Positions 1,785 through 58,606 of a stretch of 64,000 nt of DNA are shown piece by piece. How positions within the stretch are numbered: the stretch's first letter is position 1; each line of letters starts with the position of its first letter. Source of the DNA: an uncultured Phycisphaeraceae bacterium (GTDB lineage: Bacteria > Planctomycetota > Phycisphaerae > UBA1845); NCBI GenBank assembly GCA_964648365.1, contig CAZYLK010000001.1, forward strand, positions 762 through 64,761. Reading direction: 5' to 3'. The notes below the pieces were generated by a model, which saw only the letters and a list, made by a program, of their open reading frames with translations, ran no database searches and was not told the origin of the DNA. The translations under genes were made by a program, and so were the position numbers.

Positions 1785-1820
1785 GTCAGAGTCCGTTGAC
1801 TGACGCTGGAAACTCTCGTT

Positions 1821-8790: not shown

Positions 8791-8794
8791 GTAG

Positions 8795-10858: not shown

Positions 10859-10891
10859 AATTCGTTATTCGCTATTCGCTATTCGCCATTC
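10859..10891. repeat. Family B octamer array overlapping the 3' end of hypD
   Basis: aattcgttattcgctattcgctattcgccattc. The hypD C-terminus ...GRMANSE and its TAG stop (10872-10874) are encoded by the array. Confidence 0.9.
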
Positions 10892-11972: not shown

Positions 11973-12229
11973 GGCGCGTCCGGCTCGCCGTGGCGAAGTT
12001 CGTCGAGTTCGTTCATGGAATCAAGAAACGAAAAGACCAGCCCGGCTTCGTCCTCGTGTACACGCGACAGCGCAAAGCCGACGTGAACGATGGCGTATTC
12101 ACCGACTTCGAGGTCGGGCACGTGGGCGAGGCAGACGGACTTCGTAATCCCTCCGAAGTCCACCTTGCCCATCGGCAGGCCGTTCTCGTCGTACTTGGCC
12201 GTCAGTTTTCCGGGTATTCCGAGGCACAT
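11969..12229 (-). CDS. hypC: Hydrogenase maturation chaperone HypC
   Basis: [10 protein letters not shown]-terminus, 86 aa. The tracked ORF 11969..12589 is an artefactual 5' extension through a repeat array. Confidence 0.9.
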
Positions 12230-12242: not shown

Positions 12243-12302
12243 GGGGAGTCAGAGAGAATAGGGAGTAAGGGAACAAGGGAGTAAGGGAGTAAGGGAAGAA
12301 GG
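12243..12302. repeat. Family A octamer array between hypF stop and hypC start
   Basis: ggggagtcagagagaatagggagtaagggaacaagggagtaagggagtaagggaagaagg. In the hyp (minus) sense it reads as TTACTCCC units ending 13 nt before the hypC ATG. Confidence 0.9.
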
Positions 12303-12585: not shown

Positions 12586-15336
12586 TCATCCCGATTGCAG
12601 GGCCACGTCCTTCGCTGCTACCGCCGCTGCAATGGCAAGCTGGCCCAGGCTCAGGCCGCCGTCGTTGGGGGGAACCTGGCGATGGCGGATGACGCGGAAT
12701 CCGTCGCGTTGAAGCCGCGCCGTCGCCCCTTCCAGCAGCAAAACGTTCATGAACACTCCCCCGCTGAGGGCCACCAGGCTAACGCCGGTCTGCGCACGCA
12801 GCCGCCCACACACGTCGACGATCAGTTCGACCAGCGTGGCGTGGAACCGGCGGGCGATCACGGCCGGGTCCACCGATGCCCGCACGGCGCACAGGACGTT
12901 GCGGATCAGCGGGCGGGTGTCGATGATCATAGGCGCGTCAGAATGATCAGGCTGTCGGTCCGCCGCCGCGGGCGTGACGGCGTACGCGTAGGCATCATCG
13001 GGCTGTTGTGCTACCGCCGATCCGCCATGTCCGCGGAGTGACACCGAGTTCGAGCCGGTGGAATCACGGGCTGGAAGCCCGTGCCACACCGCCTCGTTCG
13101 GGCTGCCGTTTAGCGGCGGTGTGGACGCCGCCCATTCCAATTCGATGGCGGCCTGTCCCTCATACGCGGCCGTCTGGCGAATGCCGGCCAGCGCCGCCAC
13201 GGCATCGAACAGGCGGCCCATGCTGGACGTAAGTGGTGCATTGATGCGCTGCCGGATCATCCGCTCGATCACGCTCAGCTTCTGTCGCGACACGTGCCGC
13301 TGGAGCGCCTCGCAAAAGCCGACCGCGTCGATCAGATGCGCGGCGGCCATGCGCCAGGGCTCATGGATCGCCTGCTCGCCGCCGGGCATGGGCACGTAGC
13401 GCAGATGCGCCGCGCGACGGAAGCTGGACAAATCGCCGACCAGAAACTCGCCGCCCCAGACCGCGCCGTCTAGGCCGTAGCCGGTTCCGTCGAAGATCAC
13501 CCCAATGGCCGTCTCGGTCGATCCGTTCTCCGCCAGGCAACTCGCGAGGTGGGCGTGATGGTGCTGCACGGCGAGCCGCCGCGGCGTGCGGTTTGCGAGC
13601 GTCGGTCCCTGCAAATCCGCGCGGGCACAAGCCCGCGGCTCGCTTGAATTGCCGGATTCGCATCGCTGCAGCGCGTATCGCGTGGTCGCGTAGTCCGGGT
13701 GCAGGTCGTGCACGAGCAGCGCCGGCTGAATGTCGAAGAACCGCTCGAAGTCGTCGATGGCCTGCGTGTAGGCTCGAAACGCAGAGAAGTCGTCCAGGTC
13801 GCCGCCGTGGTGGCTGAGCATCGCCTGATGGCCGGCGCCCAGCGCGAACGTCGCTTTTAACTGCCCGCCGACGGCCAGGATGGGGATGCGGCAGTCGCTC
13901 GGCAGCGACAGCGGCTGCGGCACGTACCCCCGCGAGCGCCGCAGGATCAGCGGCGCCCCGCCGGTGACGCGGACGATCGAGTCGTCGCAGCGGCGGTGGA
14001 TCGGCCGGTCGTGCGTCAGCAGCAGATCGGCCAGACCGGCGAAGCGTTGGCGGGCGTCGGAGTCCTCGTAGGCGATCGGCTCGTCGGACAGGTTTCCGCT
14101 GGTCATCACCAGCGGCGTGCCGTCCATCTCGGCCATGAGCAGATGGTGCAGCGGTGTATACGGCAGCATCACGCCCAGCAGCGGATTACCCGGCGCGACG
14201 GCATCGGCGATGGGGTATACAAGCGAGCCGCGGGCTTCAGCCCGCGCGGATTCCCGGCACGGAAAACCCGTCCCGTTCGCAATCGACACGCCCTTACGGA
14301 GCGCAACGTCGCCCACTGACGCCGACGCCAAATCCAGCCCCGGCCGCAGAATGCCGAGTGTGGTTGCTGGAACGAGTGGAGAGCCAAACGAGTCAGGTGA
14401 CGCGGAGTTTCGCCGAACGTCCGCGCGGGCTGAAGCCCGCGGCTCGCTTTCGCTCGTGAGTTCTTCTGCATGGCCGGATCGCCGCTTCAGCAGCACGATC
14501 GGTCGGCGCACATCCTCCAGCAGCCGCGCCTCATCGTACGACACCTCGCAGATCGCCTCGGCCGCGGCCAGATCGCGGACCATGATCGCGAACGGCTTTT
14601 CCTCGCGATGCTTGCGGCCGCGGAGCCTCTCAACGGCGGCTCCGTCCGACGCCAGGCAGGCGAGGTGATAGCCGCCCAGCCCTTTGATCGCCACGATGGC
14701 GCCGCGGCGCAGGGATTCGGCCGCGGCGCGCAGCGGGTCATCTGTGGCTGCCGCGGTACCGTCGGGGGTCTCAAGCGCCAGTCGCGGCCCGCACACCGGG
14801 CAGGCGGTCGGCTCGGCGTGAAAGCGGCGGTTGGCCGGATCCTCATATTCCCGGCGGCAGGCGTCGCACATGTCGAACCGCGACATCGTTGTCTGCGCGC
14901 GGTCGTAAGGGACGCCGGTGATGATCGTCAGCCGCGGTCCGCAATGGGTGCAATTCAAGAACGGGTAGCGATAGCGGCGGTCGGCCGGGTCGAAGAGTTC
15001 GGTCAGACATTCCGGGCACGTCGCCACGTCGGCCGGTACGGACACGCGCGACCCGCCGTCCGGTTCGCTGGCGACGATCTCAAATGCCCGGTCGTGTTGC
15101 GGCGGGCAGTCCTGCCACTCAACCCGGTCGATGCGGGCCAGCGGCGGGAGACGATCCGTCAACGCTTGTTGGAACCGGCTCAGGGTGGCGGCCGCGCCCT
15201 CGACTTGGATGAGTACGTGCGAGCCTTCGTTGCGCACGAAGCCGGTCAGGCCAAGCTGTGAGGCAACACGGTGGACGAAGGGGCGGAACCCGATCCCCTG
15301 CACCAGACCCGTGACTTTGGCACTTCGCCGGACCAT
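12586..15336 (-). CDS. hypF: Carbamoyltransferase HypF, enlarged by in-frame repeat-derived insertions
   Basis: Acylphosphatase N-terminus VTGLVQGIGFRPFV. Two zinc-finger pairs (CPECLTELFDP...CTHCGPR; CDACRREYEDP...CPVCGPR). YrdC-like and Kae1-like parts (GVMLPYTPLHHLL, VQHHHAHLAS). The start was set to ATG 15336. The product is 916 aa versus about 750 aa in E. coli HypF. Confidence 0.9.
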   Translation of the reverse strand: MVRRSAKVTGLVQGIGFRPFVHRVASQLGLTGFVRNEGSHVLIQVEGAAATLSRFQQALTDRLPPLARIDRVEWQDCPPQHDRAFEIVASEPDGGSRVSVPADVATCPECLTELFDPADRRYRYPFLNCTHCGPRLTIITGVPYDRAQTTMSRFDMCDACRREYEDPANRRFHAEPTACPVCGPRLALETPDGTAAATDDPLRAAAESLRRGAIVAIKGLGGYHLACLASDGAAVERLRGRKHREEKPFAIMVRDLAAAEAICEVSYDEARLLEDVRRPIVLLKRRSGHAEELTSESEPRASARADVRRNSASPDSFGSPLVPATTLGILRPGLDLASASVGDVALRKGVSIANGTGFPCRESARAEARGSLVYPIADAVAPGNPLLGVMLPYTPLHHLLMAEMDGTPLVMTSGNLSDEPIAYEDSDARQRFAGLADLLLTHDRPIHRRCDDSIVRVTGGAPLILRRSRGYVPQPLSLPSDCRIPILAVGGQLKATFALGAGHQAMLSHHGGDLDDFSAFRAYTQAIDDFERFFDIQPALLVHDLHPDYATTRYALQRCESGNSSEPRACARADLQGPTLANRTPRRLAVQHHHAHLASCLAENGSTETAIGVIFDGTGYGLDGAVWGGEFLVGDLSSFRRAAHLRYVPMPGGEQAIHEPWRMAAAHLIDAVGFCEALQRHVSRQKLSVIERMIRQRINAPLTSSMGRLFDAVAALAGIRQTAAYEGQAAIELEWAASTPPLNGSPNEAVWHGLPARDSTGSNSVSLRGHGGSAVAQQPDDAYAYAVTPAAADRQPDHSDAPMIIDTRPLIRNVLCAVRASVDPAVIARRFHATLVELIVDVCGRLRAQTGVSLVALSGGVFMNVLLLEGATARLQRDGFRVIRHRQVPPNDGGLSLGQLAIAAAVAAKDVALQSG
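13065..13087. repeat. H3-type hairpin (CACGGGCTGGAAGCCCGTGCCAC) inside hypF coding sequence
   Basis: Read directly. It shares the gaatcacggg...cccgtgccac frame with the intergenic copies at 15399-15421 and 15467-15489. Confidence 0.8.
13616..13641. repeat. H4-type hairpin (TCCGCGCGGGCACAAGCCCGCGGCTC) inside hypF coding sequence
   Basis: Read directly. It is translated as ...SSEPRACARAD... in HypF. Confidence 0.85.
14225..14445. repeat. MITE-like 221-bp segment bounded by inverted H4 hairpins (14225-14250 and 14420-14445) inside hypF
   Basis: gagccgcgggcttcagcccgcgcgga at the left end and its reverse complement tccgcgcgggctgaagcccgcggctc at the right end. The whole segment stays in frame in HypF. 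Confidence 0.8.
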
Positions 15337-15367
15337 CGCATCACAGTCCACCAGCAGGATGCCGGAG

Positions 15368-15489
15368 CACCGGTTGAAAACCGGTGCCACAAGAGAATCA
15401 CGGGCAAGATGCCCGTGCCACACGTGCCACACAGACGCCGGTTGCAAACCGGTGCCACAGGAGAATCACGGGCAAGATGCCCGTGCCAC
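15368..15489. repeat. Duplicated composite hairpin unit [H1 + H3] x2 between hypB stop and hypF start
   Basis: The four modules are caccggttgaaaaccggtgccac (15368-15390), cacgggcaagatgcccgtgccac (15399-15421), ccggttgcaaaccggtgccac (15438-15458) and cacgggcaagatgcccgtgccac (15467-15489). Confidence 0.9.
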
Positions 15490-19535: not shown

Positions 19536-20927
19536 CTACGGGAAAATCCCCCGCTCCTTGTAGATCTTCTCCAGCCGGCTCAGCGCCAGCACGTACGCGG
19601 CCGTGCGCCAATCAATCGACAGTTCGCGGGCCTTGTCGCGCACGCGATCGTAGGCGAGGTTCATCTTCTTTCGCAGCTTGAAGTCCACCTCTTCCAGATC
19701 CCAGAACTCGCTCCGCTTGTTCTGCAGCCACTCGAAGTAGCTGACCACCACGCCGCCCGCGTTGCACAGGATGTCCGGGACGACGTCGATGCCTTTCTTC
19801 TGCAGGATCTCGTCCGCTTCGGGTGTGGTCGGGCCGTTGGCCGCTTCGGCCACCACCGAGACGTTCAGCCAGGGGGCCGTGGTGGCGTTGATCTGGTTCT
19901 CCATGGCCGCGGGCACGAAGATGTCGGCCGGCGTCTGCATGAACATGATGTTGTCCACGAACTCGCCGCCGGGATAGCGGGCGACGCCGCCGTGAACGCT
20001 GACGTAGCGGAGCAGGTCTTCCGGGTCGAGGCCGTTGCGGTTGCGCACGCCTCCGGTCACATCCTGAACGGCGATCAACTTGGCGCCCATGCCGGCGATG
20101 AGGCGGGCCGCCCAGGAGCCGACGTTGCCGAACCCCTGCACGGTGAACGTCGCCTCTTCCAGCGGTCGGCGATGCTCCTGCGCCCAGCGCTGCACACAGT
20201 ACGCGACGCCCTGGCCGGTGGCCTTGTCGCGCCCGGCGCTGCCGCCGGCCGCCACCGGCTTGCCCGTGACGACGTGGACGTGTCGCTGCCGTTCGTGCGG
20301 GGGCAGCGTGGACAGATACGTGTCCAGGATCCACGCCATGATCTGCGGATTCGTGTTCACGTCCGGGGCGGGGATGTCGTAGTCAGGCCCGATGTTGTCG
20401 CCCAATGCGTAGGCGAATCGCCGCGTGATGCGTTCCAACTGCGTGGCGGAGTACTTCGACGGGTCGATCTGGATGCCCCCCTTGGCCCCGCCGAACGGGA
20501 TGTCGACCAGGGCGCACTTGAAGGTCATCCACGCCGCCAGTGCCCGGGCTTCGTCGATGTCGAGTTGCGGATGAAACCGCAGCCCGCCCTTGAAGGGACC
20601 GAGCGCGTCGTTGTGCTGCACGCGATAGCCGGTGAAGACCTCGACGTCACAGCCGTTCATCTTCACCGGGAAGTTGACGACGATTTCGTTTTCGGTGCTG
20701 CCGATGATCTTCCGGATATTGGGATCGAGCCGCATGAGGTCCGCCGCCCGGTCGAGCCGCGTCATCACGTCGGCGAACAGCGACCGCGGCGCCGCGGGCG
20801 CGGCCGGGGGGGGCGGCGGCTGTGGTGCGCGCGGCCGATCGTCCCTGGGTTCCACGCGAGGCGCTTTTCGTTCCTCGAGCACGCCGGGTGACGTGCTCGA
20901 CTGTTCGATGATGGTATGCGTTGCCAT
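19536..20927 (-). CDS. gdhA: Glutamate dehydrogenase (Glu/Leu/Phe/Val dehydrogenase family)
   Basis: GPFKGGLRFHP and IPFGGAKGG motifs. The start was set to ATG 20927. About 45 aa of N-terminal Pro-rich extension remain. Confidence 0.9.
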   Translation of the reverse strand: MATHTIIEQSSTSPGVLEERKAPRVEPRDDRPRAPQPPPPPAAPAAPRSLFADVMTRLDRAADLMRLDPNIRKIIGSTENEIVVNFPVKMNGCDVEVFTGYRVQHNDALGPFKGGLRFHPQLDIDEARALAAWMTFKCALVDIPFGGAKGGIQIDPSKYSATQLERITRRFAYALGDNIGPDYDIPAPDVNTNPQIMAWILDTYLSTLPPHERQRHVHVVTGKPVAAGGSAGRDKATGQGVAYCVQRWAQEHRRPLEEATFTVQGFGNVGSWAARLIAGMGAKLIAVQDVTGGVRNRNGLDPEDLLRYVSVHGGVARYPGGEFVDNIMFMQTPADIFVPAAMENQINATTAPWLNVSVVAEAANGPTTPEADEILQKKGIDVVPDILCNAGGVVVSYFEWLQNKRSEFWDLEEVDFKLRKKMNLAYDRVRDKARELSIDWRTAAYVLALSRLEKIYKERGIFP

Positions 20928-33896: not shown

Positions 33897-33937
33897 CATT
33901 CGACATTCGCCATTCGCCATTCGCCATTCGCCATTCA
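33897..33937. repeat. Family B octamer array 2 nt downstream of rpoD stop
   Basis: The plus strand reads cattcgacattcgccattcgccattcgccattcgccattca. The minus sense reads GAATGGCG units. Confidence 0.9.
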
Positions 33938-39442: not shown

Positions 39443-40201
39443 ATGATTCTCGGCAAGTTCTGGCATGTGGTGATGGCGCAGATCAACAAACTGGCCAACA
39501 TTTTCTGGACGGCCGATCCCATCGCTCAGATGCAATACGAGTACGACCAGGCAGTCGCCCAGATGAAGGAAGGCCGCGAGGGATTAGAGCAGTACCGCGC
39601 CCTGGTGGAACGGGTCAGCCGTCAGGTCGCGACGACGAAGCGGCACGTCGCCAACCTGGAGGCCAAGGTCAAAGCCTACCTGCAAGCCGGCGATCGCGAG
39701 ACGGCCGCCAAGTTCGCGCTGGAACTTCAGAAGGCCCGGGCGGAACTCGTCGAGAACGAAGAGCAGCTCACGCTGCACGAGACGGCCTACAACAACAACC
39801 TGACCAAGATCAAGCACGCTACCGGCAAGCTGGCCAAGGTACGTGAGAAGATCCAGAAGTACGACGCCGAACTGAAGATGAGCAAGGCCGAGGGTGAGAT
39901 GGCCAAGCTGGCTCAGTCGTTCAACTTCGACGTGACGACGGACTTCGGCGCCATCGAATCGGTCATTCAGGACAAGATCAGCCTCAACCGGGCCAAGGCG
40001 CGGGTCGCATCGGATCTTTCCAGCGAAGGCATTGTGGACGTGCAGCGCGAGCAGGCGATGGAACAGGCCATGGCCGATCAGGCCCTGCGCGAGTTCGAGA
40101 TGGACCTCGGGCTGGTGACGCCGGAGACGTCGTCTGTTGCCGATGAGACAAAGCAGCTTGGACCGGCCGTGACCGAGGCGAATACGCAGACGCAGGGGTG
40201 A
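39443..40201 (+). CDS. pspA: PspA/IM30 (Vipp1) family protein
   Basis: 252 aa, MILGKFWHVVMAQINKLANIFWTADPIAQMQYEYDQAV... with long coiled coil typical of PspA/IM30. The start was set to ATG 39443. Confidence 0.85.
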   Translation: MILGKFWHVVMAQINKLANIFWTADPIAQMQYEYDQAVAQMKEGREGLEQYRALVERVSRQVATTKRHVANLEAKVKAYLQAGDRETAAKFALELQKARAELVENEEQLTLHETAYNNNLTKIKHATGKLAKVREKIQKYDAELKMSKAEGEMAKLAQSFNFDVTTDFGAIESVIQDKISLNRAKARVASDLSSEGIVDVQREQAMEQAMADQALREFEMDLGLVTPETSSVADETKQLGPAVTEANTQTQG

Positions 40202-40560
40202 GGAAGAAGGGAGTAAGGGAGTGAGGGAGTAAGGGAGTAAGGGAAGAGGAACGATGCAACATTGTTCTACATCGCGCGGTTCTGCCGGCTCGCGAATCGC
40301 TTCCCCATCGCACCTGAAACAGCGTGCGCGATCACGCGCCAGCGCCGAGCCGCGGGCTTCAGCCCGCGCGATCCCCCCGGAAGTGAAGCGGCTACGAATC
40401 GCGCACTGTGATTTAGAAGAAGGCACCTCGGAAAAAGGACTGAGTCGGATGCGGAAACGTCGGGATGTCAGATTCGACGTGCCATCCGCTCTTCCCTTAC
40501 TCCCTCACTCCCTTACTCCCTCACTCCCTTCTTCGGGAACTCCCTCACTCCCTCCTTCCG
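40201..40560. repeat. Intergenic repeat complex: family A array forward (about 40209-40250), H4 hairpin (40347-40371), family A array reverse complement (40490-40560)
   Basis: The forward array reads gggagtaagggagtgagggagtaagggagtaagggaag. The hairpin reads gagccgcgggcttcagcccgcgcga. The reverse array reads cttcccttactccctcactcccttactccctcactcccttcttcgggaactccctcactccctccttcc. Confidence 0.9.
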
Positions 40561-40571
40561 AGGAGTCCTAA

Positions 40572-42473
40572 GTGGAACGCTCTACGACGCCGGTCGCACC
40601 CAGCACGCTGCCCGACTGGTATCCCGCCTGGGCGCGGGAGCTGGCGAATCTTTATTTCTCCGGCACGACCTGCGTCTTTCTGCTGCACGGCAATGTACAC
40701 GATCTGGTTCGGGTCGAGGCCGGCGGGCGCATTGAGCATACGAACGTACTCGATTTTCTCGCGTCGCAGATCTTCGGCTCTTGGGACGTGGTGCTGCAAT
40801 ACGACCTGGCGGCCGGCACGCGGCCCAAGGCCGGCAGCGACCAGAAGCGCCTCCGAGATATGGTTGCGTATCTGACTGCCCGGCTGGGCGACATGGGGCA
40901 GTGGACGCGCGAAGCGGGCAAAAACCTGCTGCTCTTTGACAAGCTGCTGGAACGCAACCTGGTCGAAGACAAGCCGGCCGAGCGGCGCAGCATCGCGCTG
41001 CTGTTCGATTACGCCCAATATCTGGTTCCGGCGGGGGGGGCCGGGATGATGAGCGCCGCGGCCGGGGCAAACCTCGTGCGGCTGCTGAGTTGGGCGCAAA
41101 GTCCCTACCTGAAGAAGGTCAACGTCGCCATCTGCCTGGTGGCCGACAAACTGGCCGAGATCAACGATCGGCTCGTGCAAAGCCCGCACGTGGCGACGGT
41201 CGAGATTCCGATGCCCGATACCGAGGCGCGGCGGCGGTTTATCGAGTCGGAGCACGTCGAGATCGCCGCCGGGCGATGCGGATTGTGCGGAGCGACCGCC
41301 GAAGGCAGCGGTCCAGACCGCGCGGCAGAGGGCGGCGCCGCCGCCGGGGGGGGCGGTGCGGAGGCCGCCGGGCGTCACGCTGGCGATCACGGTCAGGGCG
41401 GCCATGACCATGACGGCCACGACGCCGCGGAACTGGCCGAAATGTCGAACGGCCTCAGCCTGATAAACCTGAACGTGATCCTCTCCCGCGCACGTCAGAA
41501 GGGTGGCCCGATCGACGCGTCCGGCTTCCGCCGGGCCAAGAAGGATCTGATCGAGCGGCAATGCGAGGGGCTGCTCGAGTTCATCACGCCCAAGCACACG
41601 CTGGACATGGTGGTCGGGCTGGAGGCCGCCAAGAGCCGGCTGCGGGCCGATGGCGACCTGCTGACCCGCGGCCACCTCGACGCCGCCCCCATGGGATACC
41701 TGGTCAGCGGACCGGTCGGCACCGGCAAGACGTTTCTGGCTGAGTGCTACGCCGGCTCGATCGGCGTGCCGTGCGTCAAGCTGCGGAACTTCCGCTCCAA
41801 GTACGTGGGCGAAACCGAAGGGAATCTCGAGCACGTGCTGACCGTGCTGCGGTCGCTGGGTCCGGTGGTGGTCATCATCGACGAGGCGGACGCGGCCCTC
41901 GGTGATCGCGATAACTCCGGCGATTCCGGCACGTCGAGCCGCGTCTTCTCGATGATCGCCAGCCAGATGGGCGACACGCGCTACCGCGGACGGATCGTGT
42001 GGATGTTGCTGACCTGCCGACCCGACCTGCTGCCGATCGACCTGAAGCGCCAGGGGCGGGCGGAGGTTCACATTCCGCTGTTCTATCCGCAGAGCGACGC
42101 AGAACTGGCGGAAATGATCCAGGTCATGGCCCGCAAGAACCGCATCGGGTTCGAACGGCCCATCGAAGCCGCGGCCATGCCCCACCGCGAGATGAGCGGG
42201 GCGGACATCGAGAGCGTGCTGGTGCTGGCGCGGCGGTGTGCACTGACCGACGGCCGCGAGAAAGTTCGGCCGGAAGACGTGGAGGCGGCCCTGGCGGATT
42301 TCATCCCGTCGGTGCAGGGGCTGGAAAAGGAGATGCAGGAACTCGCGGCCGTGCTGGAGTGTACGCAACTGAGTTTCCTGACGCCGGCCTGGCGTGAGAA
42401 GGTGGAAAAACCAGACGGCCGCACCCGCTTGCAGGAGCGGATGGTCGCGATCCGACAGTTGATTGAGCAGTGA
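40572..42473 (+). CDS. AAA+ ATPase, classical clade C-terminal module with large N-terminal region (possibly a degenerate AAA-like domain)
   Basis: The GTG start is preceded by AGGAG. Walker A GPVGTGKTF, Walker B VVIIDEAD, and SRH-like TCRPDLLPIDLKRQGRAEVHIPLFYP. There is an internal Gly/His/Asp-rich insertion. Confidence 0.8.
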   Translation: MERSTTPVAPSTLPDWYPAWARELANLYFSGTTCVFLLHGNVHDLVRVEAGGRIEHTNVLDFLASQIFGSWDVVLQYDLAAGTRPKAGSDQKRLRDMVAYLTARLGDMGQWTREAGKNLLLFDKLLERNLVEDKPAERRSIALLFDYAQYLVPAGGAGMMSAAAGANLVRLLSWAQSPYLKKVNVAICLVADKLAEINDRLVQSPHVATVEIPMPDTEARRRFIESEHVEIAAGRCGLCGATAEGSGPDRAAEGGAAAGGGGAEAAGRHAGDHGQGGHDHDGHDAAELAEMSNGLSLINLNVILSRARQKGGPIDASGFRRAKKDLIERQCEGLLEFITPKHTLDMVVGLEAAKSRLRADGDLLTRGHLDAAPMGYLVSGPVGTGKTFLAECYAGSIGVPCVKLRNFRSKYVGETEGNLEHVLTVLRSLGPVVVIIDEADAALGDRDNSGDSGTSSRVFSMIASQMGDTRYRGRIVWMLLTCRPDLLPIDLKRQGRAEVHIPLFYPQSDAELAEMIQVMARKNRIGFERPIEAAAMPHREMSGADIESVLVLARRCALTDGREKVRPEDVEAALADFIPSVQGLEKEMQELAAVLECTQLSFLTPAWREKVEKPDGRTRLQERMVAIRQLIEQ

Positions 42474-42489
42474 TCTGGTGTGGCACCAT

Positions 42490-42512
42490 GTGGCACCGGT
42501 TTTCAACCGGTG
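42490..42512. repeat. H1 hairpin just downstream of AAA ATPase stop
   Basis: gtggcaccggttttcaaccggtg, preceded by a partial gtggcacc. Confidence 0.9.
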
Positions 42513-42693
42513 AGCTCTGGAGCCGGTCTGAGGCCGGCGCCACGCGATCAGCACCGTCCGCGCCGGGCGGATCGGGGAGCGGCCGCACCGGAGTACCTGG
42601 TTCGGCGCAGCCAGCACAGTGATCCCAGCGACGACCGCGTCCGGTCGCCGCGGCCGAAATATCGACCGACTCGAAACACGAAGGATTTTTCGC

Positions 42694-43472: not shown

Positions 43473-44279
43473 ATGAGGTCGGCGACCGGACAATCTCGAC
43501 AACTCGCACGGCTGTGTTCGCTGGGCGTCGTCTCGATCGCGGCGCTCATCATGTTCTTTCCAAGTTGCGACCGTGACTCGTCGTCATCGACCGGAGGTCG
43601 GTCCCCGTCGCGCCAGTCGGGCAAGCGCGTCAGCGCCGGCCCAATCGACCTGCCCCAGGCGGACCAGCGGCTGTGCACGGGTGTCGTGCTGCTGGTGGAC
43701 ACGTCGGGCAGCATGAACCAGAAGGTGCGCGATCGCGGCGGCGCGGAACAGCCCAAGCACGTGATCGCTCGAGCGGCGATCGACCGGATCGTGGCGTATA
43801 CCGATCAGTGGCAAACGCAGCATCCCGACCGCGTGCTGCACCTCGGCGTGCTCAATTTCAGCAGCTCCGCCCATACGGTCATGCCGCTGGCGGCGTTTGA
43901 CGCTGCCACGGCCGCGGAGGCCGCGACGCGCATACCGGCGCCGGGCGGAGGAACCGCCATCGGCTCAGCCCTGCAGGAAGGCTTCAAGGCGCTCTATGCC
44001 TCCGGCTGCGTGCGGAAGTACGTCGTCTGCATCACCGACGGCGAGAACACGTCCGGCCCGCCGCCCGACCGGGTCGCCCGCGCGCTGCACGGCCAGACGG
44101 AAGGCGACGTCGAGATCCACTTTGTTGCATTCGACACGTCGCCCGCTAAGTTCGCATTCCTGTCGAAGGTCAACGGCTACGTCGTCGAGGCGGCGGACGG
44201 GGCGCAGCTCGACGCGCGGCTGGCCGATATCTATGAGAAACGGATCCTGGCGGAGGCGATGACGCTCGAAAAGGAATAG
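43473..44279 (+). CDS. von Willebrand factor A (vWA) domain lipoprotein
   Basis: RBS AGGAGGTG. Lipobox-like MFFPSC. MIDAS motif LVDTSGSM. GGGTAIGSAL and ITDGENTSG segments. Confidence 0.85.
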   Translation: MRSATGQSRQLARLCSLGVVSIAALIMFFPSCDRDSSSSTGGRSPSRQSGKRVSAGPIDLPQADQRLCTGVVLLVDTSGSMNQKVRDRGGAEQPKHVIARAAIDRIVAYTDQWQTQHPDRVLHLGVLNFSSSAHTVMPLAAFDAATAAEAATRIPAPGGGTAIGSALQEGFKALYASGCVRKYVVCITDGENTSGPPPDRVARALHGQTEGDVEIHFVAFDTSPAKFAFLSKVNGYVVEAADGAQLDARLADIYEKRILAEAMTLEKE

Positions 44280-44563
44280 CGAATGTCGAATAGCGAATAA
44301 CGAATGAAGCTCGCGCCGGTGCAGCGATCCTTCAGAACGGGGAGCGTAAACGACCGGCTGCGGAGGAATGTCGAATGTCGAATGAAGAGCAAATCGGAGC
44401 GGAGCGGCGCTATCCGGGCCGGAGCCGGAGACCACTGACAGAGGAAATGGGGATCGAGAATGGAGCCGTCTGACGCTGGAGCAGCATGTTCGTCTTCTCT
44501 GCATTCGACATTCGACATTCGCCATTCGACATTGAACCTTAGCCATTCGCCATTCGACATTCC
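44275..44563. repeat. Family B octamer arrays: forward 44275-44309 and 44366-44387, reverse complement 44502-44562
   Basis: The forward arrays read aatagcgaatgtcgaatagcgaataacgaatgaag and gaatgtcgaatgtcgaatgaag. The reverse array reads cattcgacattcgacattcgccattcgacatt..agccattcgccattcgacattcc. The vWA stop TAG (44277-44279) lies in the first unit. Confidence 0.9.
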
Positions 44564-46385: not shown

Positions 46386-46576
46386 GTGGCACCGGTTCCG
46401 GTGTGGCACCGGTTTCCAACCGGTGAGTCCGGTGTGGCACCGGTTTGCAACCGGTGAGTCTGATGTGGCACCGGTTTGCAACCGGTGGATCACCTTCCGG
46501 GGTCTGATGCAGGGTTACGCGCACTGGTTGCAAACCAGTGCCACAATTGAAGACACCGGTTGAAAACCGGTGCCAC
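46386..46576. repeat. H1 hairpin array (one partial and three full forward copies, two reverse copies) between SBP gene and permease gene
   Basis: Forward copies gtggcaccggtttSCaaccggtg lie at 46403, 46434 and 46465 with a 31-bp period. Reverse copies are cactggttgcaaaccagtgccac at 46522 and caccggttgaaaaccggtgccac at 46554. Confidence 0.9.
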
Positions 46577-48616: not shown

Positions 48617-49504
48617 ATGCGCCGCCCGGCCGGAAAACTCGGCACCTATCTGAAGGCAGCGTTCACCCACCACTGGAACCTGCTGGCCTTTTTCGGTGCG
48701 CTGGGTTTTTCCCTGCTCAGCGGCATGCCGGACGTGCTGATCCCTCTGGTGGTGGCCGGCGAGATGGTCTATGTGGGCGGGCTGGCCGCGCATCCGAAGT
48801 TCCAGGCCTACATCGACGCCCAGGCGGCCAAGGCGGTCCGGCAGGACGGCTCGTCCCGCTCGCAGCAGATGCTCAATACCATGCTGCGCCGGCTCCCGCC
48901 GCGCACGATTGACCGGTTCGAGACGCTGCGCAACCGCTGCCTGGAACTGCGACAACTCGCCCTGGAACTGAAAGACCCCGGCCACACCGGCGGCGCGCGC
49001 CCGCTCGACGACATGCAGATGTCCGGCCTGGACCGGCTGCTGTGGATCTACCTGCGGTTGCTGTTTACCGAGCATTCGCTGGAGCGCTTCCAGGAGCGCA
49101 CCCACCCGTCGCAGGTCGAAGCGGACATCGAGGCGCTGGAGGCCCAGCTTTCCGACAGCGCGTCGATCGCCGACGACATTCAGCGGCAGAAGGTTCAGCG
49201 CACCCTTCAGGACAACCTCCAGACCTGCCGCGACCGGCTCGCCAACCTGCAGAAAGCCCGTGACAACCTCACGGTGGTCAAGCTCGAACTCGACCGGCTG
49301 GAAAACAAAATCCGCGCCTTAAGCGAACTGCCCCTCAACCGCCAGGAGCCCGACTACATCACTGCCCAGGTGGACGCGGTGGCATCGAGCATGGTGCAGA
49401 CCGAGCAGACGATGAACGAACTGCAATTCGCCACCGGCCTGGAAACGGCCGACGAAGCCGTGCCGCCGCTGATGAGCCGGCCGGTGGCGATGATGCAGGA
49501 ATAG
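48617..49504 (+). CDS. Hypothetical membrane protein with two N-terminal TM helices and long coiled coil
   Basis: 295-aa ORF 6 nt after the ABC ATPase gene. It has WNLLAFFGALGFSLLSGMPDVLIPLVVAGEMVYVGGL followed by Q/L/E-rich heptads. Confidence 0.6.
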   Translation: MRRPAGKLGTYLKAAFTHHWNLLAFFGALGFSLLSGMPDVLIPLVVAGEMVYVGGLAAHPKFQAYIDAQAAKAVRQDGSSRSQQMLNTMLRRLPPRTIDRFETLRNRCLELRQLALELKDPGHTGGARPLDDMQMSGLDRLLWIYLRLLFTEHSLERFQERTHPSQVEADIEALEAQLSDSASIADDIQRQKVQRTLQDNLQTCRDRLANLQKARDNLTVVKLELDRLENKIRALSELPLNRQEPDYITAQVDAVASSMVQTEQTMNELQFATGLETADEAVPPLMSRPVAMMQE

Positions 49505-49534
49505 CGAATAGCGAATGGCGAATAACGAATGAAG
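49500..49534. repeat. Family B octamer array spanning a stop codon and the argH start codon
   Basis: aatagcgaatagcgaatggcgaataacgaatgaag. The TAG at 49502-49504 ends the upstream gene, and the ATG at 49529-49531 (unit GAATGAAG) starts argH. Confidence 0.9.
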
Positions 49535-54500: not shown

Positions 54501-55497
54501 GACAGTCGGGGCGCAGCCGGCGCGGGTGGGCCGCCTCGCCAATGTCCATGTTCATTCCGCCGACGATATGCGGGCCTGGCGCGTCGAGTCCAATGGGAAC
54601 CGGCAGGAGGAGGCCGTCCGCCATGCCGCGGCGGTGCTGGCGCCGCTGCCGCCGGCCGAACCTGTTGCGGCCGCCCATCCGCGCGTCGAAGCCGTGGTGC
54701 GCCGACTGGACGCGCGCTACCCGTCGCTTGCAGTCACGTCCGTCCGTGCCGTCGTCGGCGCCAGCGAGGTCAAGCGTACGGCCGACGCCAGTGGAGATTC
54801 CGAGCGAGCCGCGGGCCTCAGCCCGCGCGGACGCACCGGTCAGACATCGGCGGCGGCGGCGCAGGCGCCCGCAACGAAGCAGACCGCCCAGTCGGCGGGG
54901 CAGGCCCGGCCCGATCTGGAGGCGCCTTCCGCGCGCGCGGTTGCATCGGCTCGCGGGGAAGACGCCCGCCGTCGTGGCATCCTGACGCATCTCGTCTTGC
55001 AGCACGTGGATCTGTCCGCGGCGCGCGATCGCCCCGGCGTGGAGGCCGAAGTCGCCCGACTGGTTGACGCCGGGACGCTAGCGGCGGAGGACGTGGAGCA
55101 CGTCGATGCAGACGGCATCGGCTGGTTTGTGACCACCGACCTGGCCGATCGCCTGCGCAGCGCGGGCGGCGCCTATCGCCGCGAGTTCCCCTACATCGCC
55201 CGCGAGGATCCGGCGTTCTTCGACCCGCAGGTGCGGGCGGAGGATGACGAGGATCAGGTGCTCGTGCGCGGCATTATCGACGGCGTCCTGGAATCGCCCG
55301 ACGGGGTGGCCGTGGTCGACTTCAAGACCGACCGGGTCGAACCGGGTGCTGTCGTGGAACGCGCTTTGCAATATCATGGGCAGATGGCGCTGTACGCGCG
55401 GGCGCTGGAGCGACTCCTGCGCAAACCGGTCGCGGCCGCCCACCTGGTGTTCCTGTCGCCCCGGGTGATTCACAGGATCGATGCGCCCGGTCGCTGA
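51529..55497 (+). CDS. UvrD/PcrA-family helicase with C-terminal PD-(D/E)xK nuclease (AddA-like)
   Basis: Walker A AAAGSGKTSVL, VDEFQDINPLQ, SIHMAKGLEFPVVF and VALTRAREKL motifs. The C-terminal nuclease motif is RGIIDGVL...VVDFKTD. No AddB-like gene is in the window. Confidence 0.85.
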   Translation: MSAIAPTPQQRQAIETAGCEVIVSAAAGSGKTSVLAGRCAYLVSEAPAPWRCDADALLVLTFTEAAAAQMRSRIVDRLRERVRQRPEDARLRRQLSLIDLAEIGTLHAFCLSLVRRYFSTLGVDPDVRVLDADEAALIERDAMDGLFERLYARQAVGVTGASGGGNAGADAGRGVADVLAGRFVELVEVYGLGRDAAIAEAVLRLSRFLDSLPDPEGWLHTHVHAAAANPAGLVDRKLAQLRDELARQLEHLRAQWAAIDGQESRCRLVKDALRAYGVQLNEWAAMAAAPAEGADAASAGACLDRLRGAMAAFEFKKPHGVRRRPGEELPPHVRYAVETFDEVQKGLFSGRLMKAFGRFSTAEWIAGAGAVVPHAAALADLAIEFRAEYLARKRALGAIDFSDLERLAYTLLSADGEGGGQVAEELRARFAHVCVDEFQDINPLQAAIIRAVSRTGDGANLFVVGDVKQSIYRFRLAEPELFLEAWRQGRQTDRGGAIPLQSNFRSRSEVIGFANLLFEQLMRPGAGAVVYDDHARLVAGRADAAAPPPQLVELHLLARRLDAAPGSENADESGEHAVDSPPPDGDDAVRAFDPTDPAEWNPIEREAFLIGRRIGQLMTDGSVTPDGKRLQYRDIAILLRSTKVNAAQVAAMLTSMGIPVHSDAAVPFLSSQEVREMLDALRVLDNPRQDIPLAGVMRTGVLGESFTEDELVEIRAMDRSVAFHQAVHRFGQSGPAGATQRKLSRLLATIDQYRHEAGTRPLADVVWDIYDRGGYLAHVGGLPRGLHRRANLIHLHERARRFGTFRRQGLHYFLRYIELLESRDADLSDSAPSPGAEDAVRIMSIHMAKGLEFPVVFLAGTGTRFNMQDSRGMILFSRRSGIGLRVVDRDKYVHYPGLAHSLVVDEVERDAREEELRVMYVALTRAREKLIVIGTPVCKDIDEWVAAARGTGRPPTLYAVDRAGCMLDWIVPCMASAPVGDVAWPEGASSTTVGAQPARVGRLANVHVHSADDMRAWRVESNGNRQEEAVRHAAAVLAPLPPAEPVAAAHPRVEAVVRRLDARYPSLAVTSVRAVVGASEVKRTADASGDSERAAGLSPRGRTGQTSAAAAQAPATKQTAQSAGQARPDLEAPSARAVASARGEDARRRGILTHLVLQHVDLSAARDRPGVEAEVARLVDAGTLAAEDVEHVDADGIGWFVTTDLADRLRSAGGAYRREFPYIAREDPAFFDPQVRAEDDEDQVLVRGIIDGVLESPDGVAVVDFKTDRVEPGAVVERALQYHGQMALYARALERLLRKPVAAAHLVFLSPRVIHRIDAPGR
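54806..54831. repeat. H4 hairpin inside the AddA-like coding sequence
   Basis: gagccgcgggcctcagcccgcgcgga, translated in frame as SERAAGLSPRGR. Confidence 0.85.
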
Positions 55498-55516
55498 CCG
55501 GGGGATGGAATGCTGT

Positions 55517-58500
55517 ATGCGAGTGCTTGGCGGCTACGACGCGCAACTGGATGCACGGGTGCGGGAACTCGGCCGTGAGATCTTCGAGCGGGCGGCCGAC
55601 GCGACCCCGCGGTTCGGGCAGCGCGCCTGGGCGCTGGAGAAGCTGACCTCCTGGGTGGACAGCGACCCGAAGCTCAAGGCGGCGGCCTTCGAGTTCGTGG
55701 CGACGCTGCCGTCGCTGCGGGATGACCATGACATCGCCCGCCACCTGGCGGAGTTCATGGCACAGCGCGAGGTTGATCTGCCGCTGCCGGCGCGGTGGGC
55801 GCTGGGGCTGGGTTCAGACCACCGGTTGCAAACCGGTGCCACATCGGATCACCGGTTGCAAACCGGTGCCACATCGGATCACCGGTTGCAAACCGGTGCC
55901 ACACCGGATCACCGGTTACAAACCGGTGCCACACCGGATCACCAACTGGAGACCGGTGCCACAGGGGACCACCGGTTGCAAACCGGTGCCACAGGTGACG
56001 GCAATGCGACGTTGCTCTCGTCGCTGATCGGCGTGATGGCCCGTCGCGGGGCGTCCGCGATGGCGGAGCGCTTCATCACCGGGCACGACGAGGCCAGCGT
56101 CACGGCGACCCTGGAGCGATTCCGCTCGCAGGGCATGACGTTCACGCTCGACGTGCTGGGCGAGTCTACGACCAGCGATGCCGTAGCGGAACGATATCTC
56201 AACACCTACCTCGAACTGATCGAGCACCTGTGCCCACGCGCGGCCACGTGGTCGAACGCGCCGACGATTGACCGGACCGATCGCGGACAGCAGCCGCGGG
56301 TCAACATTTCCATCAAGCTGACCGGCCTCGATCCGCACTTCGACCCCGTCGATCCGCAGCGTTCCATTGACGAAGTCTGCGCCCGCATCACGCCGCTCCT
56401 GCGCCGGTCGCGGGAACTCGGCGCGTTCGTCAACGTGGACATGGAGGCCTTCCGCTATCGCGACCTGACGCTCGACCTGTTTGAGCATCTGATGATGCGA
56501 CCGGAATTCCGGGATTGGGAAGATGTCGGCATCGTGGTTCAGGCCTACCTTGCGGACGGCGAGCGTGACCTGGCCCGTCTGCTCGACTGGGGTCGCAATC
56601 GCGGTTCGCGGTTCGCGGTGCGACTCGTCAAGGGCGCTTATTGGGACACAGAGGTCGCGCTGGCGGCGGAGGCGGGTCTGCCTCCGCCGGTGTGGACGCA
56701 GAAGTGGCAGTCCGACGCCTGCTACGAGCGCATGACGCGCGTCATGCTCGCCCATACGGATGTCATTCGACCGTGCTTCGCCAGCCACAACGTCCGCTCG
56801 CTGGCTCACGTGCTGGGCACGGCCGAGCGATACGGACTGACGCCGCGGTCGTATGAAGTCCAGATGCTCTACGGCATGGGCGACCCTCTCAAGGATGCGA
56901 TGGTTCGCATGGGCCAGTGCCTGCGCGTCTACTCGCCCTACGGCGACATGATCCGCGGCATGGCCTACCTGATCCGCCGGCTTATCGAGAACACGTCGAA
57001 CGACTCGTTCCTGAAGCAGGGCTTCACGCATCGTGCGGGCTACGACCGTCTGCTCGCCGATCCCGCGATCGCCGGGCCGGCGAGGAACGGGCGGGGCGGC
57101 AGCGGCAATGGCGCGGATTCAGGTGCGCCCGAGGCATCGACGCCCGGAGTCGCGCAATCCGACTTCGGCCGTCGCGAAACCCGCGACGCCATGACCGCCG
57201 CGCTGAAGCGCCGGGGCGACGTTCCGACGTTCATGCCCTACGTCGCCGGTCGGTTTATCACCGCGACGGCGACGGAGGATGCCGCGGATGCGTCGCGCCC
57301 GGGCGTCGCCATCGCCAGGATCGGTCTGGCCCGGCCGGCGGACGTGGACGATGCCGTCGCCGCGGCCCGAACCGCCGCTGCCGCGTGGTCTGCACGCAGC
57401 GATGCGGAGCGCCGGGAGGCGGTGGCAGCGCTGACGGAACGCATGATCACCCGGCGGATGGAACTGGCGGCGTGGCTGATCCGCGACGCTGGGATGACAT
57501 GGCGTGCGGCGGACATCGAAGTGGCGGCCGCGATCCGTGCCTGTCGCCGGTGGGGGGCGACCCTGCCTGCCGCGACTCGCCCGGGCGGCAGGGTCTGGGC
57601 AGCGTTACTGCCCTGGAACGCGCCGCTGTCGGTGGCTGCGGAAGTGCTGGCCTGCGGGTTGGCCGCCGGACGGGCCGTCATACTCAAGCCGGATCTGCGC
57701 GCCGCTTGCGCCGCCTGCGTGCTGGCGACGCTCGTCGACGAGTTGGAGCTGCCCGCGGGTCTTGCAGCGATTGTTGCCGGGCCTGATCCCGCTACGGCTG
57801 GACGCCTGACGCGGCATACCGGCGTCGACCGCCTGATTCGTATCGGCCCGCCCGATCCCGACCTGGACGCCGCATCCGGCGAGGGGGCCGGGCGTGCCTT
57901 CGGCCGGACGTTTGTGCCCGATTCGGTGGTTGTCGTCGGGCACACGGCCAATCTCGACGCAGCCGTGTGGGGTGCGGTCCAGTCGGCGTACGACTTCGCC
58001 GGGCAGTCGTTCTCCGCCGCCAAGCGGATTATCGTCGATGCGGCGGTCCACGACGCGTTCGTCGAGCGGCTGAAGGAGGCGGTCGAAAGCCTGATGATCG
58101 GGCCGGCCGATGCCCCGCTGACGCTGGTCGGGCCGATGATCGACGAGGCGGCGAGGGAGCGGTTTCGGCGATCCGTCGCAGCCGTGGCCTCGATCTCTCG
58201 GATCGTCGTCGATCGCACCGCTGCCGCTGACGCGGCGTCCGGCTGCGTCGGTCCACTGCTTCTGACGGGGGCGCAGCTCGCGCCCGCGGCGATCGGCCCC
58301 GTGGCCTGCGTCTACAGAGCCGCCAGTTTCGAGCAGGCGTTGCGGATGGCGAACGCACGCCCCGCACCCGCGGCGGCGGTCTACACCCGCACGCCGTCGC
58401 AGCTTCGCGCCGCTCGCATCGCCCTGGCGGAATCGGAGGTTACGATAAACACGCCGGTGGCTGGCGGAGGCTGGGGCGGCCTGGGGCAGTTGGTTCTATC

Positions 58501-58606
58501 GGAGTCCGGCGCCGAATCCGGCATCGTGGCTTCCGCGGCAGGCCCGGTGACGGCCGCAAGCGGGACAGGTCGGGATCGCGCCCCGACGGGCGCAGGCGCG
58601 CATTGA
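55517..58606 (+). CDS. putA: PutA-like fusion: proline dehydrogenase domain + aldehyde-dehydrogenase-like domain (the latter apparently lacking catalytic residues)
   Basis: N-terminal arm KAAAFEFVATLPSL. ProDH barrel motifs VRLVKGAYWD and RVYSPYGD...YLIRRLIENTSNDSFL. ALDH fold markers LLPWNAPL and VILKPD, but GQSFSA stands where GQxCxA is expected. Start alternatives are 55481, 55505 and 55517. Confidence 0.8.
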   Translation: MRVLGGYDAQLDARVRELGREIFERAADATPRFGQRAWALEKLTSWVDSDPKLKAAAFEFVATLPSLRDDHDIARHLAEFMAQREVDLPLPARWALGLGSDHRLQTGATSDHRLQTGATSDHRLQTGATPDHRLQTGATPDHQLETGATGDHRLQTGATGDGNATLLSSLIGVMARRGASAMAERFITGHDEASVTATLERFRSQGMTFTLDVLGESTTSDAVAERYLNTYLELIEHLCPRAATWSNAPTIDRTDRGQQPRVNISIKLTGLDPHFDPVDPQRSIDEVCARITPLLRRSRELGAFVNVDMEAFRYRDLTLDLFEHLMMRPEFRDWEDVGIVVQAYLADGERDLARLLDWGRNRGSRFAVRLVKGAYWDTEVALAAEAGLPPPVWTQKWQSDACYERMTRVMLAHTDVIRPCFASHNVRSLAHVLGTAERYGLTPRSYEVQMLYGMGDPLKDAMVRMGQCLRVYSPYGDMIRGMAYLIRRLIENTSNDSFLKQGFTHRAGYDRLLADPAIAGPARNGRGGSGNGADSGAPEASTPGVAQSDFGRRETRDAMTAALKRRGDVPTFMPYVAGRFITATATEDAADASRPGVAIARIGLARPADVDDAVAAARTAAAAWSARSDAERREAVAALTERMITRRMELAAWLIRDAGMTWRAADIEVAAAIRACRRWGATLPAATRPGGRVWAALLPWNAPLSVAAEVLACGLAAGRAVILKPDLRAACAACVLATLVDELELPAGLAAIVAGPDPATAGRLTRHTGVDRLIRIGPPDPDLDAASGEGAGRAFGRTFVPDSVVVVGHTANLDAAVWGAVQSAYDFAGQSFSAAKRIIVDAAVHDAFVERLKEAVESLMIGPADAPLTLVGPMIDEAARERFRRSVAAVASISRIVVDRTAAADAASGCVGPLLLTGAQLAPAAIGPVACVYRAASFEQALRMANARPAPAAAVYTRTPSQLRAARIALAESEVTINTPVAGGGWGGLGQLVLSESGAESGIVASAAGPVTAASGTGRDRAPTGAGAH
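55820..55993. repeat. Six tandem 30-bp copies of the H1 hairpin inside putA, in frame
   Basis: caccggttgcaaaccggtgccaca + 6 nt, with copies starting at 55820, 55850, 55880, 55910, 55940 (degenerate) and 55970. They are translated as DHRLQTGAT[SPG] x6. Confidence 0.95.

Follow-up and report, generated by a model that had tools for sequence, protein, structure and literature searches.

A tandem-octamer hairpin between pspA and an AAA ATPase gene of a Phycisphaeraceae bacterium, and its likeness to the arrays that bracket PF05635 genes

An uncultured Phycisphaeraceae bacterium (assembly GCA_964648365.1) carries, between its pspA gene and an AAA ATPase gene, a 361-bp element whose two ends are inverted arrays of the G-rich octamer GGGAGTRA. 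The window analysed here is the whole stretch of 64,000 nucleotides around this element (contig CAZYLK010000001.1, positions 762 to 64,761 of the forward strand), and all window positions are counted from its first letter. Six arrays of the octamer lie in the window at four intergenic sites, with a period of 8 and 3.6-7.8 copies, and they are an octamer member, in Phycisphaerales, of a known class of G-rich, tandem, 7-8-nt intergenic repeats. Genes were mapped from Pfam matches together with calls based on GC content at third codon positions (GC3). The pspA-AAA locus comprises the following features:

39443-40201, plus strand: pspA (Pfam/GC3 gene map)
40200-40560, plus strand: the whole element, a derived gain of 361 bp between the pspA stop and the AAA GTG at 40572, delimited by the indel against the relative SURF_32
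40196-40251, plus strand: left, G-rich arm, GAAGAA-(GGGAGTRA)x5-GGGAAGAGG, which includes the pspA stop 40199-40201 and a G-quadruplex (G4) motif at 40209-40235
40252-40485, plus strand: loop of 234 nt between the arms, without an open reading frame (ORF) that has family support
40486-40562, minus strand: right arm (C-rich on the plus strand), CTCTTCCC-(TYACTCCC)n-TTCTTC and two further units, placed by sequence and fold
40572-42473, plus strand: AAA ATPase gene (Pfam/GC3 gene map)

The six octamer arrays, the other sites that they form and the genes beside those sites (Pfam/GC3 gene map) are placed as follows:

571-606, plus strand: G-rich array
8795-8845 (clean units 8803-8834), plus strand: G-rich array
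12256-12302 (clean units 12261-12300), plus strand: G-rich array
40207-40250, plus strand: G-rich array
641-680, plus-strand coordinates: reverse-complement array
40493-40561, plus-strand coordinates: reverse-complement array
565-686, minus strand: second octamer hairpin, arms 571-611 and 634-680 with a loop of about 22 nt, between the cytochrome b (cyt b) stop 681-683 and the next minus-strand gene
8791-8845, plus strand: single G-rich array directly 3' of the PDZ-hydrolase stop, with no partner before the next gene at 8987
12243-12302, plus strand: single array whose C-rich strand is the coding (minus) one; the hypC ATG at 12229 follows 14-26 nt downstream, and the hypF stop precedes the array by 283 nt
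681-1886, minus strand: cyt b-like gene
end at 8790, plus strand: PDZ-hydrolase gene
11969-12229, minus strand: hypC
12586-15447, minus strand: hypF

The octamer arrays are a real, non-random feature. A two-unit GGGAGTRA pattern, with up to two mismatches allowed, matches the window 20 times, as compared to a mean of 0.02 in dinucleotide shuffles (0/100 reached 20), and the arrays lie at the gene boundaries at which a sequence-only reading of this DNA had placed them. The hypC-upstream array is no assembly artefact, since the same sequence is found in two independent Logan assemblies. Several arrays show a 16-bp higher-order alternation of GGGAGTGA and GGGAGTAA (GTGA/GTAA), and array ends carry GGGAAGAG(G) on the inner side and GAAGAA on the outer side; aligned over 41 nt with the reverse complement of 8801-8841, the arm at 40490-40530 shows 97.6% identity, and the GTGA/GTAA alternation is part of the match. 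The common alternation and the shared ends indicate that the octamer arrays are copies of one sequence type rather than products of independent slippage. A canonical G3N5 G4 motif is present in five of the six arrays, which thereby account for five of the eight canonical G4 motifs of the window.

The spacing between arrays and genes is tight: G-rich arrays start 0-10 nt after a stop (that of pspA at 40199-40201, which abuts its array, that of the PDZ hydrolase at 8788-8790 and that of cyt b at 681-683), and C-rich arrays end 11-28 nt before a gene start, the distance to the AAA GTG at 40572, a start confirmed by its orthologue, being 11-17 nt. The gene distances claimed from the sequence alone held for the pspA, PDZ-hydrolase and cyt b stops and for the AAA and hypC starts. 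The start given as 542 is uncertain: the SURF_32 annotation corresponds to a CAT near 510-512, and a start there (perhaps near 512) would put the gene about 59 nt from the array, not 28. Each octamer unit contains TAA or TGA, so that, the period being 8 nt, no reading frame stays open for more than 24 nt, as had been pointed out. Such arrays can supply a neighbour's stop or even start codon, which affects gene calling.

The paired arrays also form the very long stems predicted for them. In the minimum-free-energy (MFE) fold, the left arm 40196-40251 pairs with 40486-40562; folding of 40196-40575 gives -195.3 kcal/mol (z = -9.7), with a stem of about 55 bp around the 234-nt loop. For the second hairpin, folding of 540-690 on the minus strand gives -65.2 kcal/mol (z = -4.95). 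Rfam returned no match at gathering thresholds in the window and only chance-level matches across 40150-40620, and the spacers next to the other arrays hold nothing similar to the 234-nt loop. No terminator-like site was found in 40000-40800 or at the 571-680 hairpin, and no promoter in the elements. Two candidate identities were rejected: neither octamer hairpin has the GC-rich hairpin and U tract of an intrinsic terminator, and a miniature inverted-repeat transposable element (MITE) with a common core does not fit sites that share their arrays only, with unrelated loops.

The nearest relative, Phycisphaerales bacterium SURF_32 (GCA_003597935.1), was compared over two syntenic loci (L110 and L112; 64 kb), its orthologues of the AAA ATPase and the PDZ hydrolase being 88% and 85% identical. 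The pspA-AAA junction of SURF_32 is TAAggggcgaacGTG, only 9 bp, and the alignment is a clean 361-bp indel; in two more distant genomes the junctions measure 10 bp and 135 bp, both without arrays. The clean indel together with the array-free outgroups identifies 40200-40560 as a gain in the window's lineage. At the other three octamer sites arrays are present in both genomes, with units and copy numbers changed. The 571-680 hairpin is retained in SURF_32 (L112 3487-3616, -76 kcal/mol), where two of its consensus pairs differ by compensatory changes and none has been lost, the PDZ-site array is decayed in SURF_32, and the hypC-upstream array is retained, with a heptamer array, (CCTTCAA)n, filling the rest of the spacer. 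From these alignments, arrays are old at most sites, with fast internal turnover and occasional appearance at new junctions.

Two further observations concern the same spacers. The (CCTTCAA)n array, at L112 15000-15062 in the hypF-hypC spacer, adjoins the octamer array, and with this family one genome has at least three unrelated 7-8-mer units. A GC-rich dispersed motif (...GCGCCRGCRSCGAGCCGCGGGCTTCAGCCCGCGCG...) with a small hairpin was noticed by eye in the window at 40330-40385, in the loop of the pspA-AAA element, and at 8848-8880, directly after the single array 8795-8845; it is also found in SURF_32 (L110 about 4205-4270 and L112 about 20385-20420).

An exact scan for three consecutive units, with one genome per species, located the octamer at no fewer than 107 loci, and the unit recurs in at least ten phyla. 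Hosts among the matches listed include heterocystous cyanobacteria, Brucella/Ochrobactrum, Mesorhizobium, Phyllobacterium, Planctomycetota, Verrucomicrobiota, Lentisphaerota, Acidobacteriota, Bacteroidota, Chloroflexota, Gemmatimonadota (Longimicrobium), Paenibacillus and Halomonas. Among the same matches, the median distance from the stop of a same-strand ORF of at least 100 amino acids to the G-rich array is 5 nt (42/74 within 10 nt), as compared to 71 nt in the opposite orientation (2/55 within 10 nt). The consistent orientation relative to flanking genes that the sequence-only reading proposed thus recurs at foreign loci, with two qualifications: firstly, the unit closes all three frames, so ORFs must end at the array edge and stop proximity is partly forced; secondly, an inverted repeat reads A-loop-A' on both strands, so the orientation of paired arrays relative to genes is automatic. 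The real asymmetry of pairs is that the G-rich arm always comes first, and all eight close octamer pairs (six foreign ones among the matches listed and the two of the window) are convergent in this way. In Brucella tritici (L042 3515-3800), one pair has (GGGGAATA)n as its left arm and (CTTACTCC)n as its right, and AGGGCAGT-type units lie immediately upstream of the pair; arms can thus drift apart, and unit families that differ can be direct neighbours. A full-text literature search for GGGAGTAA returned only unrelated primer and nucleosome-template contexts.

Two of the foreign pairs, one in Verrucomicrobiota (L099) and one in Brucella sp. (L086), have a loop of about 390 bp that is an ORF of 121-122 amino acids. 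Both ORFs match (E = 3e-14 and 2e-34) the 23S rRNA-intervening sequence protein family PF05635, the equivalent of TIGR02436, 'four helix bundle protein'. A profile search revealed three further PF05635 ORFs that adjoin octamer arrays; on the far side of each ORF stands an inverted array whose unit is a variant. PF05635 ORFs thus adjoin or lie between the arms at five of the 107 octamer loci listed (Chloroflexota, Verrucomicrobiota, Rhizobiales).

Arrays were then sought around 80 PF05635 loci from metagenome contigs, an array-unbiased set fetched by protein similarity alone with a three-sequence alignment as query; Tandem Repeats Finder (TRF) was used to call repeats of period 7 or 8 with 2.9 copies or more that lay no further than 200 bp from the gene. 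Arrays flank 55 of the 80 genes on both sides, 20 on one side and 5 on neither, and in 14 of the 80 loci the flank on one side is shorter than 200 bp. The upstream unit is the exact cyclic reverse complement of the downstream unit in 36 of the 55 two-sided cases and within one mismatch of it in 12 more; between different loci, exact matches of this kind amount to 1.2%. The polarity is nearly invariant, with the upstream arm G-rich in 64/65 and the downstream arm C-rich in 63/65, and array density is 4.29 per kb near the PF05635 gene as compared to 0.28 per kb elsewhere in the same loci. In other bacteria, PF05635 genes are thus almost universally set in the arrangement (unit)n - loop - (reverse-complement unit)n. 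No PF05635 gene lies in the window, and its hairpins are therefore read as gene-less versions of the PF05635 cassette, as the common architecture suggests.

The flanking units vary from locus to locus and include the window's own heptamer GCGAATG (L124), GGGAGTG (L129) and CCCCAGT (L128, L190), the cyanobacterial short tandemly repeated repetitive (STRR) sequence STRR1. The unit AGGGCAGT, that of the Brucella HOOF loci, flanks a PF05635 gene in L114 and in L042 adjoins GGGAGTAA-type arrays. The closer two PF05635 proteins are, the more alike are their units: at 70-90% identity, 18 of 26 locus pairs differ in the unit by one base at most, as compared to 4.7% below 55% identity. Other arrays in PF05635 loci are within one mismatch of the cassette unit in 14 of 31 cases, against a null of about 7%. 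The genes flanking the cassettes are co-directional in 36 and divergent in 2 of the 50 loci with both neighbours callable. PF05635 proteins also have a weak Pfam match to bAvd, the accessory protein of diversity-generating retroelements (DGRs). A Gemmatirosa isolate has arrays on both sides of its PF05635 gene, and plasmid copies of the gene are overwhelmingly those of heterocystous cyanobacteria.

The 130 arrays that flank PF05635 genes, 94% of them heptamers, show which properties of the window's unit are general. A Shine-Dalgarno (SD) core is present in 32 of them (25%), four or more GGG tracts in 45 (35%), and a stop triplet in the G-rich unit strand in 64 (49%) and in the C-rich strand in 47 (36%). 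As only a minority has each of these, they are properties of the GGGAGTRA unit and not of the class, and the three-frame stops emphasised by the sequence-only reading are in this respect a local trait. What stays constant across the class is the period of 7 or 8, the first place of the G-rich arm and the complementarity of the arms. All-frame stops as a reason for periods 7 and 8 were set aside, the excess on the entering strand being weak (42 vs 35 of 130 arrays closed in three frames). A crude search of the fetched loci for four 23S rRNA motifs found none of them. We found no paper that reports the association of PF05635 with such arrays, in a literature search whose coverage was incomplete, so that it may be noted elsewhere; the near-constant bracketing of PF05635 genes by complementary arrays is apparently new.

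Some cassettes and the loop of the pspA-AAA element deserve separate mention. On Nostoc PCC 7120 plasmids gamma and alpha (L194/L195), the same four-helix-bundle protein (WP_010994075.1) is encoded on both; the gene copies follow sequence annotated in L194 as an ISL3 transposase gene, and the right-hand CTCTGCC array is kept while the left arm is apparently displaced. In L128, STRR1-type arrays at 1046-1076, 1460-1491, 1853-1885 and 2743-2776 are nested in the order A ... A - PF05635 gene - A' ... A', the outer pair enclosing extra sequence on each side, which suggests stacked cassettes. An eye-spotted motif had raised the idea that the 234-nt loop is what remains of a PF05635 gene; a profile search in all six frames of the window returned nothing below E = 1, and the idea was dropped.

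A second array family in the window, built of GCGAATG/GAATRRC heptamers, has the architecture of the octamers, its purine-rich strand abutting or overlapping the upstream stop. Its members are:

44274-44563, plus strand: in the spacer from the VWA gene to the OmpA gene, GAATRRC arrays 44274-44309 and 44366-44389 and an inverted CATTCGA array 44497-44563, with the upstream stop inside the first unit
33897-33936, minus strand: single GCGAATG array (coding strand), 3 nt after the stop of a sigma-70 gene
9644-9675, minus strand: single heptamer array, following the stop of the minus-strand gene 9679-10800 at a distance of 3 nt
10860-10891, minus strand: single heptamer array, overlapping the hypD stop (10872)
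49499-49534, plus strand: heptamer array filling an entire 24-nt junction, with the upstream TAG and the downstream ATG inside units

Counting both families, all 12 arrays of the window have the 5' end of their G-rich strand against the end of an ORF (a stop if that strand is the coding one, a start if it is the non-coding one), and convergent inverted pairs number two for the octamer and one for the heptamer. In SURF_32, the VWA-OmpA junction has the left array only, in a 68-bp spacer, the sigma-70 array is at the same position with about 3.5 copies vs 5.7, and a diverged array occupies the junction equivalent to that at 49499. At these three comparable heptamer sites, position is kept, and copy numbers and units differ.

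Other repeats of the window were recorded alongside these. Units of 30-31 bp around the palindrome CACCGGTT(G/T)CAAACCGGTG, beside GTGGCAC, form tandem runs of 1-6 at 46397-46487, 55820-55993, 42489-42514, 7253-7277, 15439-15460 and 46554-46575, and in SURF_32 at L110 12620-12714 and L112 4740-4850, 9775-9860 and 17930-18060. They mostly lie just 5' of gene starts, are kept in SURF_32 and have an operator- or REP-like (repetitive extragenic palindromic) look; the run 55820-55993 falls within a long ORF, 55481-58606, which may in truth begin further downstream. A short intergenic hairpin repeat, CCCCGGCATGAATGCCGGGG, is present in both genomes (window 1878-1903 and 7277-7305; L112 4851-4880 and 17905-17925). 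Finally, a short array of the octamer AAGGCACG at 5448-5470 lies just 5' of the small ORF 5505-5831, whose product resembles by eye an XRE-type helix-turn-helix protein (…LTQAQLARRVGTTASVISRLE…).

We favour an explanation in which membership of the known repeat class, a relation to PF05635 cassettes, the lineage-specific gain of the pspA-AAA hairpin and processing of the RNase III type all hold jointly, and we judge this combination probable, if only by a little. Copy number and unit sequence differ between close relatives, and cassette arms stay complementary; whole-unit slippage would change the copy number, and DNA-level copying between the arms may keep them complementary. The pspA-AAA element stands in an operon, without promoter or terminator of its own, and is probably co-transcribed with its neighbours. 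By analogy with 23S intervening sequences (IVSs), the RNA would fold into the stem of about 55 bp and present a substrate for RNase III, whose cleavage would separate the pspA and AAA cistrons, and the stop-rich G arm may end upstream translation at the edge of the stem. RNase III processing in the manner of a 23S IVS is our leading inference for what the hairpin does.

A number of results weigh against this explanation. No PF05635 gene or remnant was found in the window or in the 64 kb of SURF_32, 128 kb of the lineage in all, so the link between the hairpins and the cassettes is one of architecture only. The 80 PF05635 loci are those most closely related to a Brucella-type query and do not sample the family as a whole. 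In a strand test of 55 cassettes, arm pairing was equal on both strands (27 vs 27), with 5-6% G-U pairs, and the antisense fold is the more stable in three of three window hairpins; given this neutral outcome, the complementarity of the arms may be kept by DNA-level copying and not by selection on RNA. The 361-bp indel has no evident target-site duplication. Moreover, GTAAGGGG at the empty SURF_32 site resembles one unit, and local expansion is therefore possible.

A bolder version of the cassette relation is tentative, and we regard it as rather doubtful: the 7-8-nt intergenic repeats would be the arms of one common but hitherto overlooked cassette-type element, the full form of which encodes an Avd-like PF05635 protein that recognises the arms or assists in copying them. 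If true, it would account for arms that remain exactly complementary although their units turn over fast, for a G-rich 5' polarity that does not vary and for the co-divergence of unit and protein, and gene-less hairpins such as 40200-40560 would be non-autonomous derivatives.

The arrays may instead be binding sites, on DNA or RNA, for a multimeric protein (the PF05635 protein or another regulator), each unit being matched to its own protein. Tandem periodicity would suit a multimer, and the weak bAvd match, the agreement between unit similarity and protein identity and the shared unit of other arrays in PF05635 loci all point the same way, as do the paired octanucleotides of Geobacter, proposed as global-regulator sites (PMC2700814). 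However, co-divergence of unit and protein is also expected from simple co-inheritance, one genome holds several unrelated units, and the 128 kb of the lineage show no PF05635 gene; we consider this account unlikely.

Plain microsatellites, arising by local slipped-strand expansion of a stop-plus-SD junction (TAAGGGAG), functionless and unrelated to any element or gene, would account for the variation of copy number and unit sequence between close relatives and for the near-unit GTAAGGGG at the empty SURF_32 junction. A stop followed by an SD-like purine run is moreover a universal junction that could yield the octamer independently in many phyla. Slippage alone, however, would not be expected to give strict inverted pairing, complementary arms and a fixed G-rich-first polarity, or arrays at different sites that share a 16-bp higher-order repeat and the inner end GGGAAGAG. 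The gain at the pspA-AAA junction also brought 234 nt of unrelated loop, and a 15-fold enrichment around PF05635 genes is left unexplained, which makes this origin distinctly improbable in our view.

We give about the same low credence to G4 or i-motif formation, in which the G-rich arrays, as DNA or as RNA, would fold and influence transcription, replication or translation close to the ends of genes, as Rehm et al. (2015; PMC4692102) proposed. The share of the window's G4 motifs that falls in octamer arrays and the nearly invariant G-rich polarity of the PF05635 arms agree with it, and related heptamers form G4 and i-motifs in vitro (PMC4692102). Yet most class arrays have fewer than four GGG tracts, the window's GCGAATG arrays share the architecture and cannot form G4, and where arrays are paired G4 has a competitor in the duplex of about 55 bp.

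Very improbable, finally, is that the G-rich arrays are decoy ribosome-binding sites and the C-rich arrays mimics of the 16S tail that mask a downstream SD: the likeness noted from the sequence alone is real at sequence level (GGAG in each unit, UCACUCCCUUA matching the 16S tail UCACCUCCUUA at 9/11 positions) and one hairpin, in which the right arm's final CUCCU pairs with the AAA gene's AGGAG at 40561-40565 in the MFE fold, could mask the AAA SD, but the SD core is confined to a quarter of class arrays and absent from the window's heptamers, the G-rich arrays hug stops, 148-327 nt from the next start rather than 5-10 nt before it, and the arms of pairs would neutralise each other, so that the resemblance is probably incidental.

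Among known systems, MITEs, REPs and bacterial interspersed mosaic elements (BIMEs) resemble the window element as small, non-coding intergenic hairpins that are present or absent among relatives. They differ from it in that the element has no shared core, arms that are tandem arrays rather than unique terminal repeats, no evident target-site duplication and no known transposase partner. Geobacter metallireducens has many copies of 4-5 tandem 7-8-nt units in opposite-strand pairs at variable distance (Aklujkar et al. 2009, PMC2700814); these paired sites (GTTGCTYN, MTYCTGA), interpreted as binding sites for a global regulator (PMC2700814), share with the window the pairing of opposite-strand 7-8-mer arrays and differ in their units.

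Among the closest published relatives are the G-rich tandem heptamers between aligned ORFs in Xanthomonas (GGGAATC) and Nostoc (GGGGA(C/T)T) (Rehm et al. 2015, PMC4692102). In Xanthomonas they form 70-75 convergent inverted pairs per genome; some arrays overlap a stop codon, and position is conserved between species while copy number varies (PMC4692102). The same placement rule is described there, so the earlier statement that no named feature class explains the arrays was incorrect. The heptamers were not found associated with mobile elements in that study, which does not mention PF05635 genes (PMC4692102). Like them, the window arrays are G-rich, tandem, dispersed and intergenic, with the same placement and convergent pairs; unlike them, they have an 8-nt unit, a planctomycete host and far longer stems (about 55 bp around 234 nt). 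Extension of the class to Planctomycetota and to an 8-nt unit is by itself of modest interest. In the SPADE survey, tandem heptamers were the commonest intergenic periodic repeat in prokaryotes, with 'no clear clue' to function; the Beggiatoa TAACTGA repeats are a related description, and in Nostoc heptamers near recF and recO alter expression.

Cyanobacterial STRR sequences, heptamers of heterocystous cyanobacteria, were reportedly described by Mazel and co-workers in 1990 (cited in PMC2670836 and PMC2858038). They resemble the window arrays as tandem heptamers dispersed between genes, and the GGGAGTRA octamer is abundant in the same heterocystous genera; they are defined as heptamers, to which no hairpin or cassette model is known to have been attached. 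The Brucella HOOF-Print loci, a variable-number tandem repeat (VNTR) scheme, have an 8-bp G-rich tandem unit at eight or more loci with hypervariable copy number (PMC1183211). Brucella and Ochrobactrum carry GGGAGTAA arrays, two of them bracketing PF05635 genes (L086, L101), but the HOOF loci serve only as typing markers, without a structural or functional model.

The 23S IVSs of Coxiella and Leptospira are the remaining comparison. The Coxiella IVS is a 28-bp stem of terminal inverted repeats with an S23p ORF in a loop of about 400 nt, is cut by RNase III in mid-stem and is regarded as selfish and horizontally acquired (PMC4990558). The window element likewise has a long inverted-repeat stem, and foreign cassettes carry the same ORF in their loop; it differs in lying in an mRNA spacer rather than in helix 9, 25 or 45 of 23S rRNA (the Rfam search found no rRNA in the window, and the 23S insertion that marks an IVS is absent), in having no ORF and in a stem built of tandem repeats. 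The PF05635 bracketing is a more useful result than the arrays themselves: if upheld, it joins two old puzzles, the nature of intergenic heptamers and the role of the '23S IVS protein', and makes both testable. Should the bolder, single-element reading prove true, it would unite STRR sequences, Brucella HOOF loci, the G4 repeats of Xanthomonas and 23S rRNA intervening sequences in a single family.

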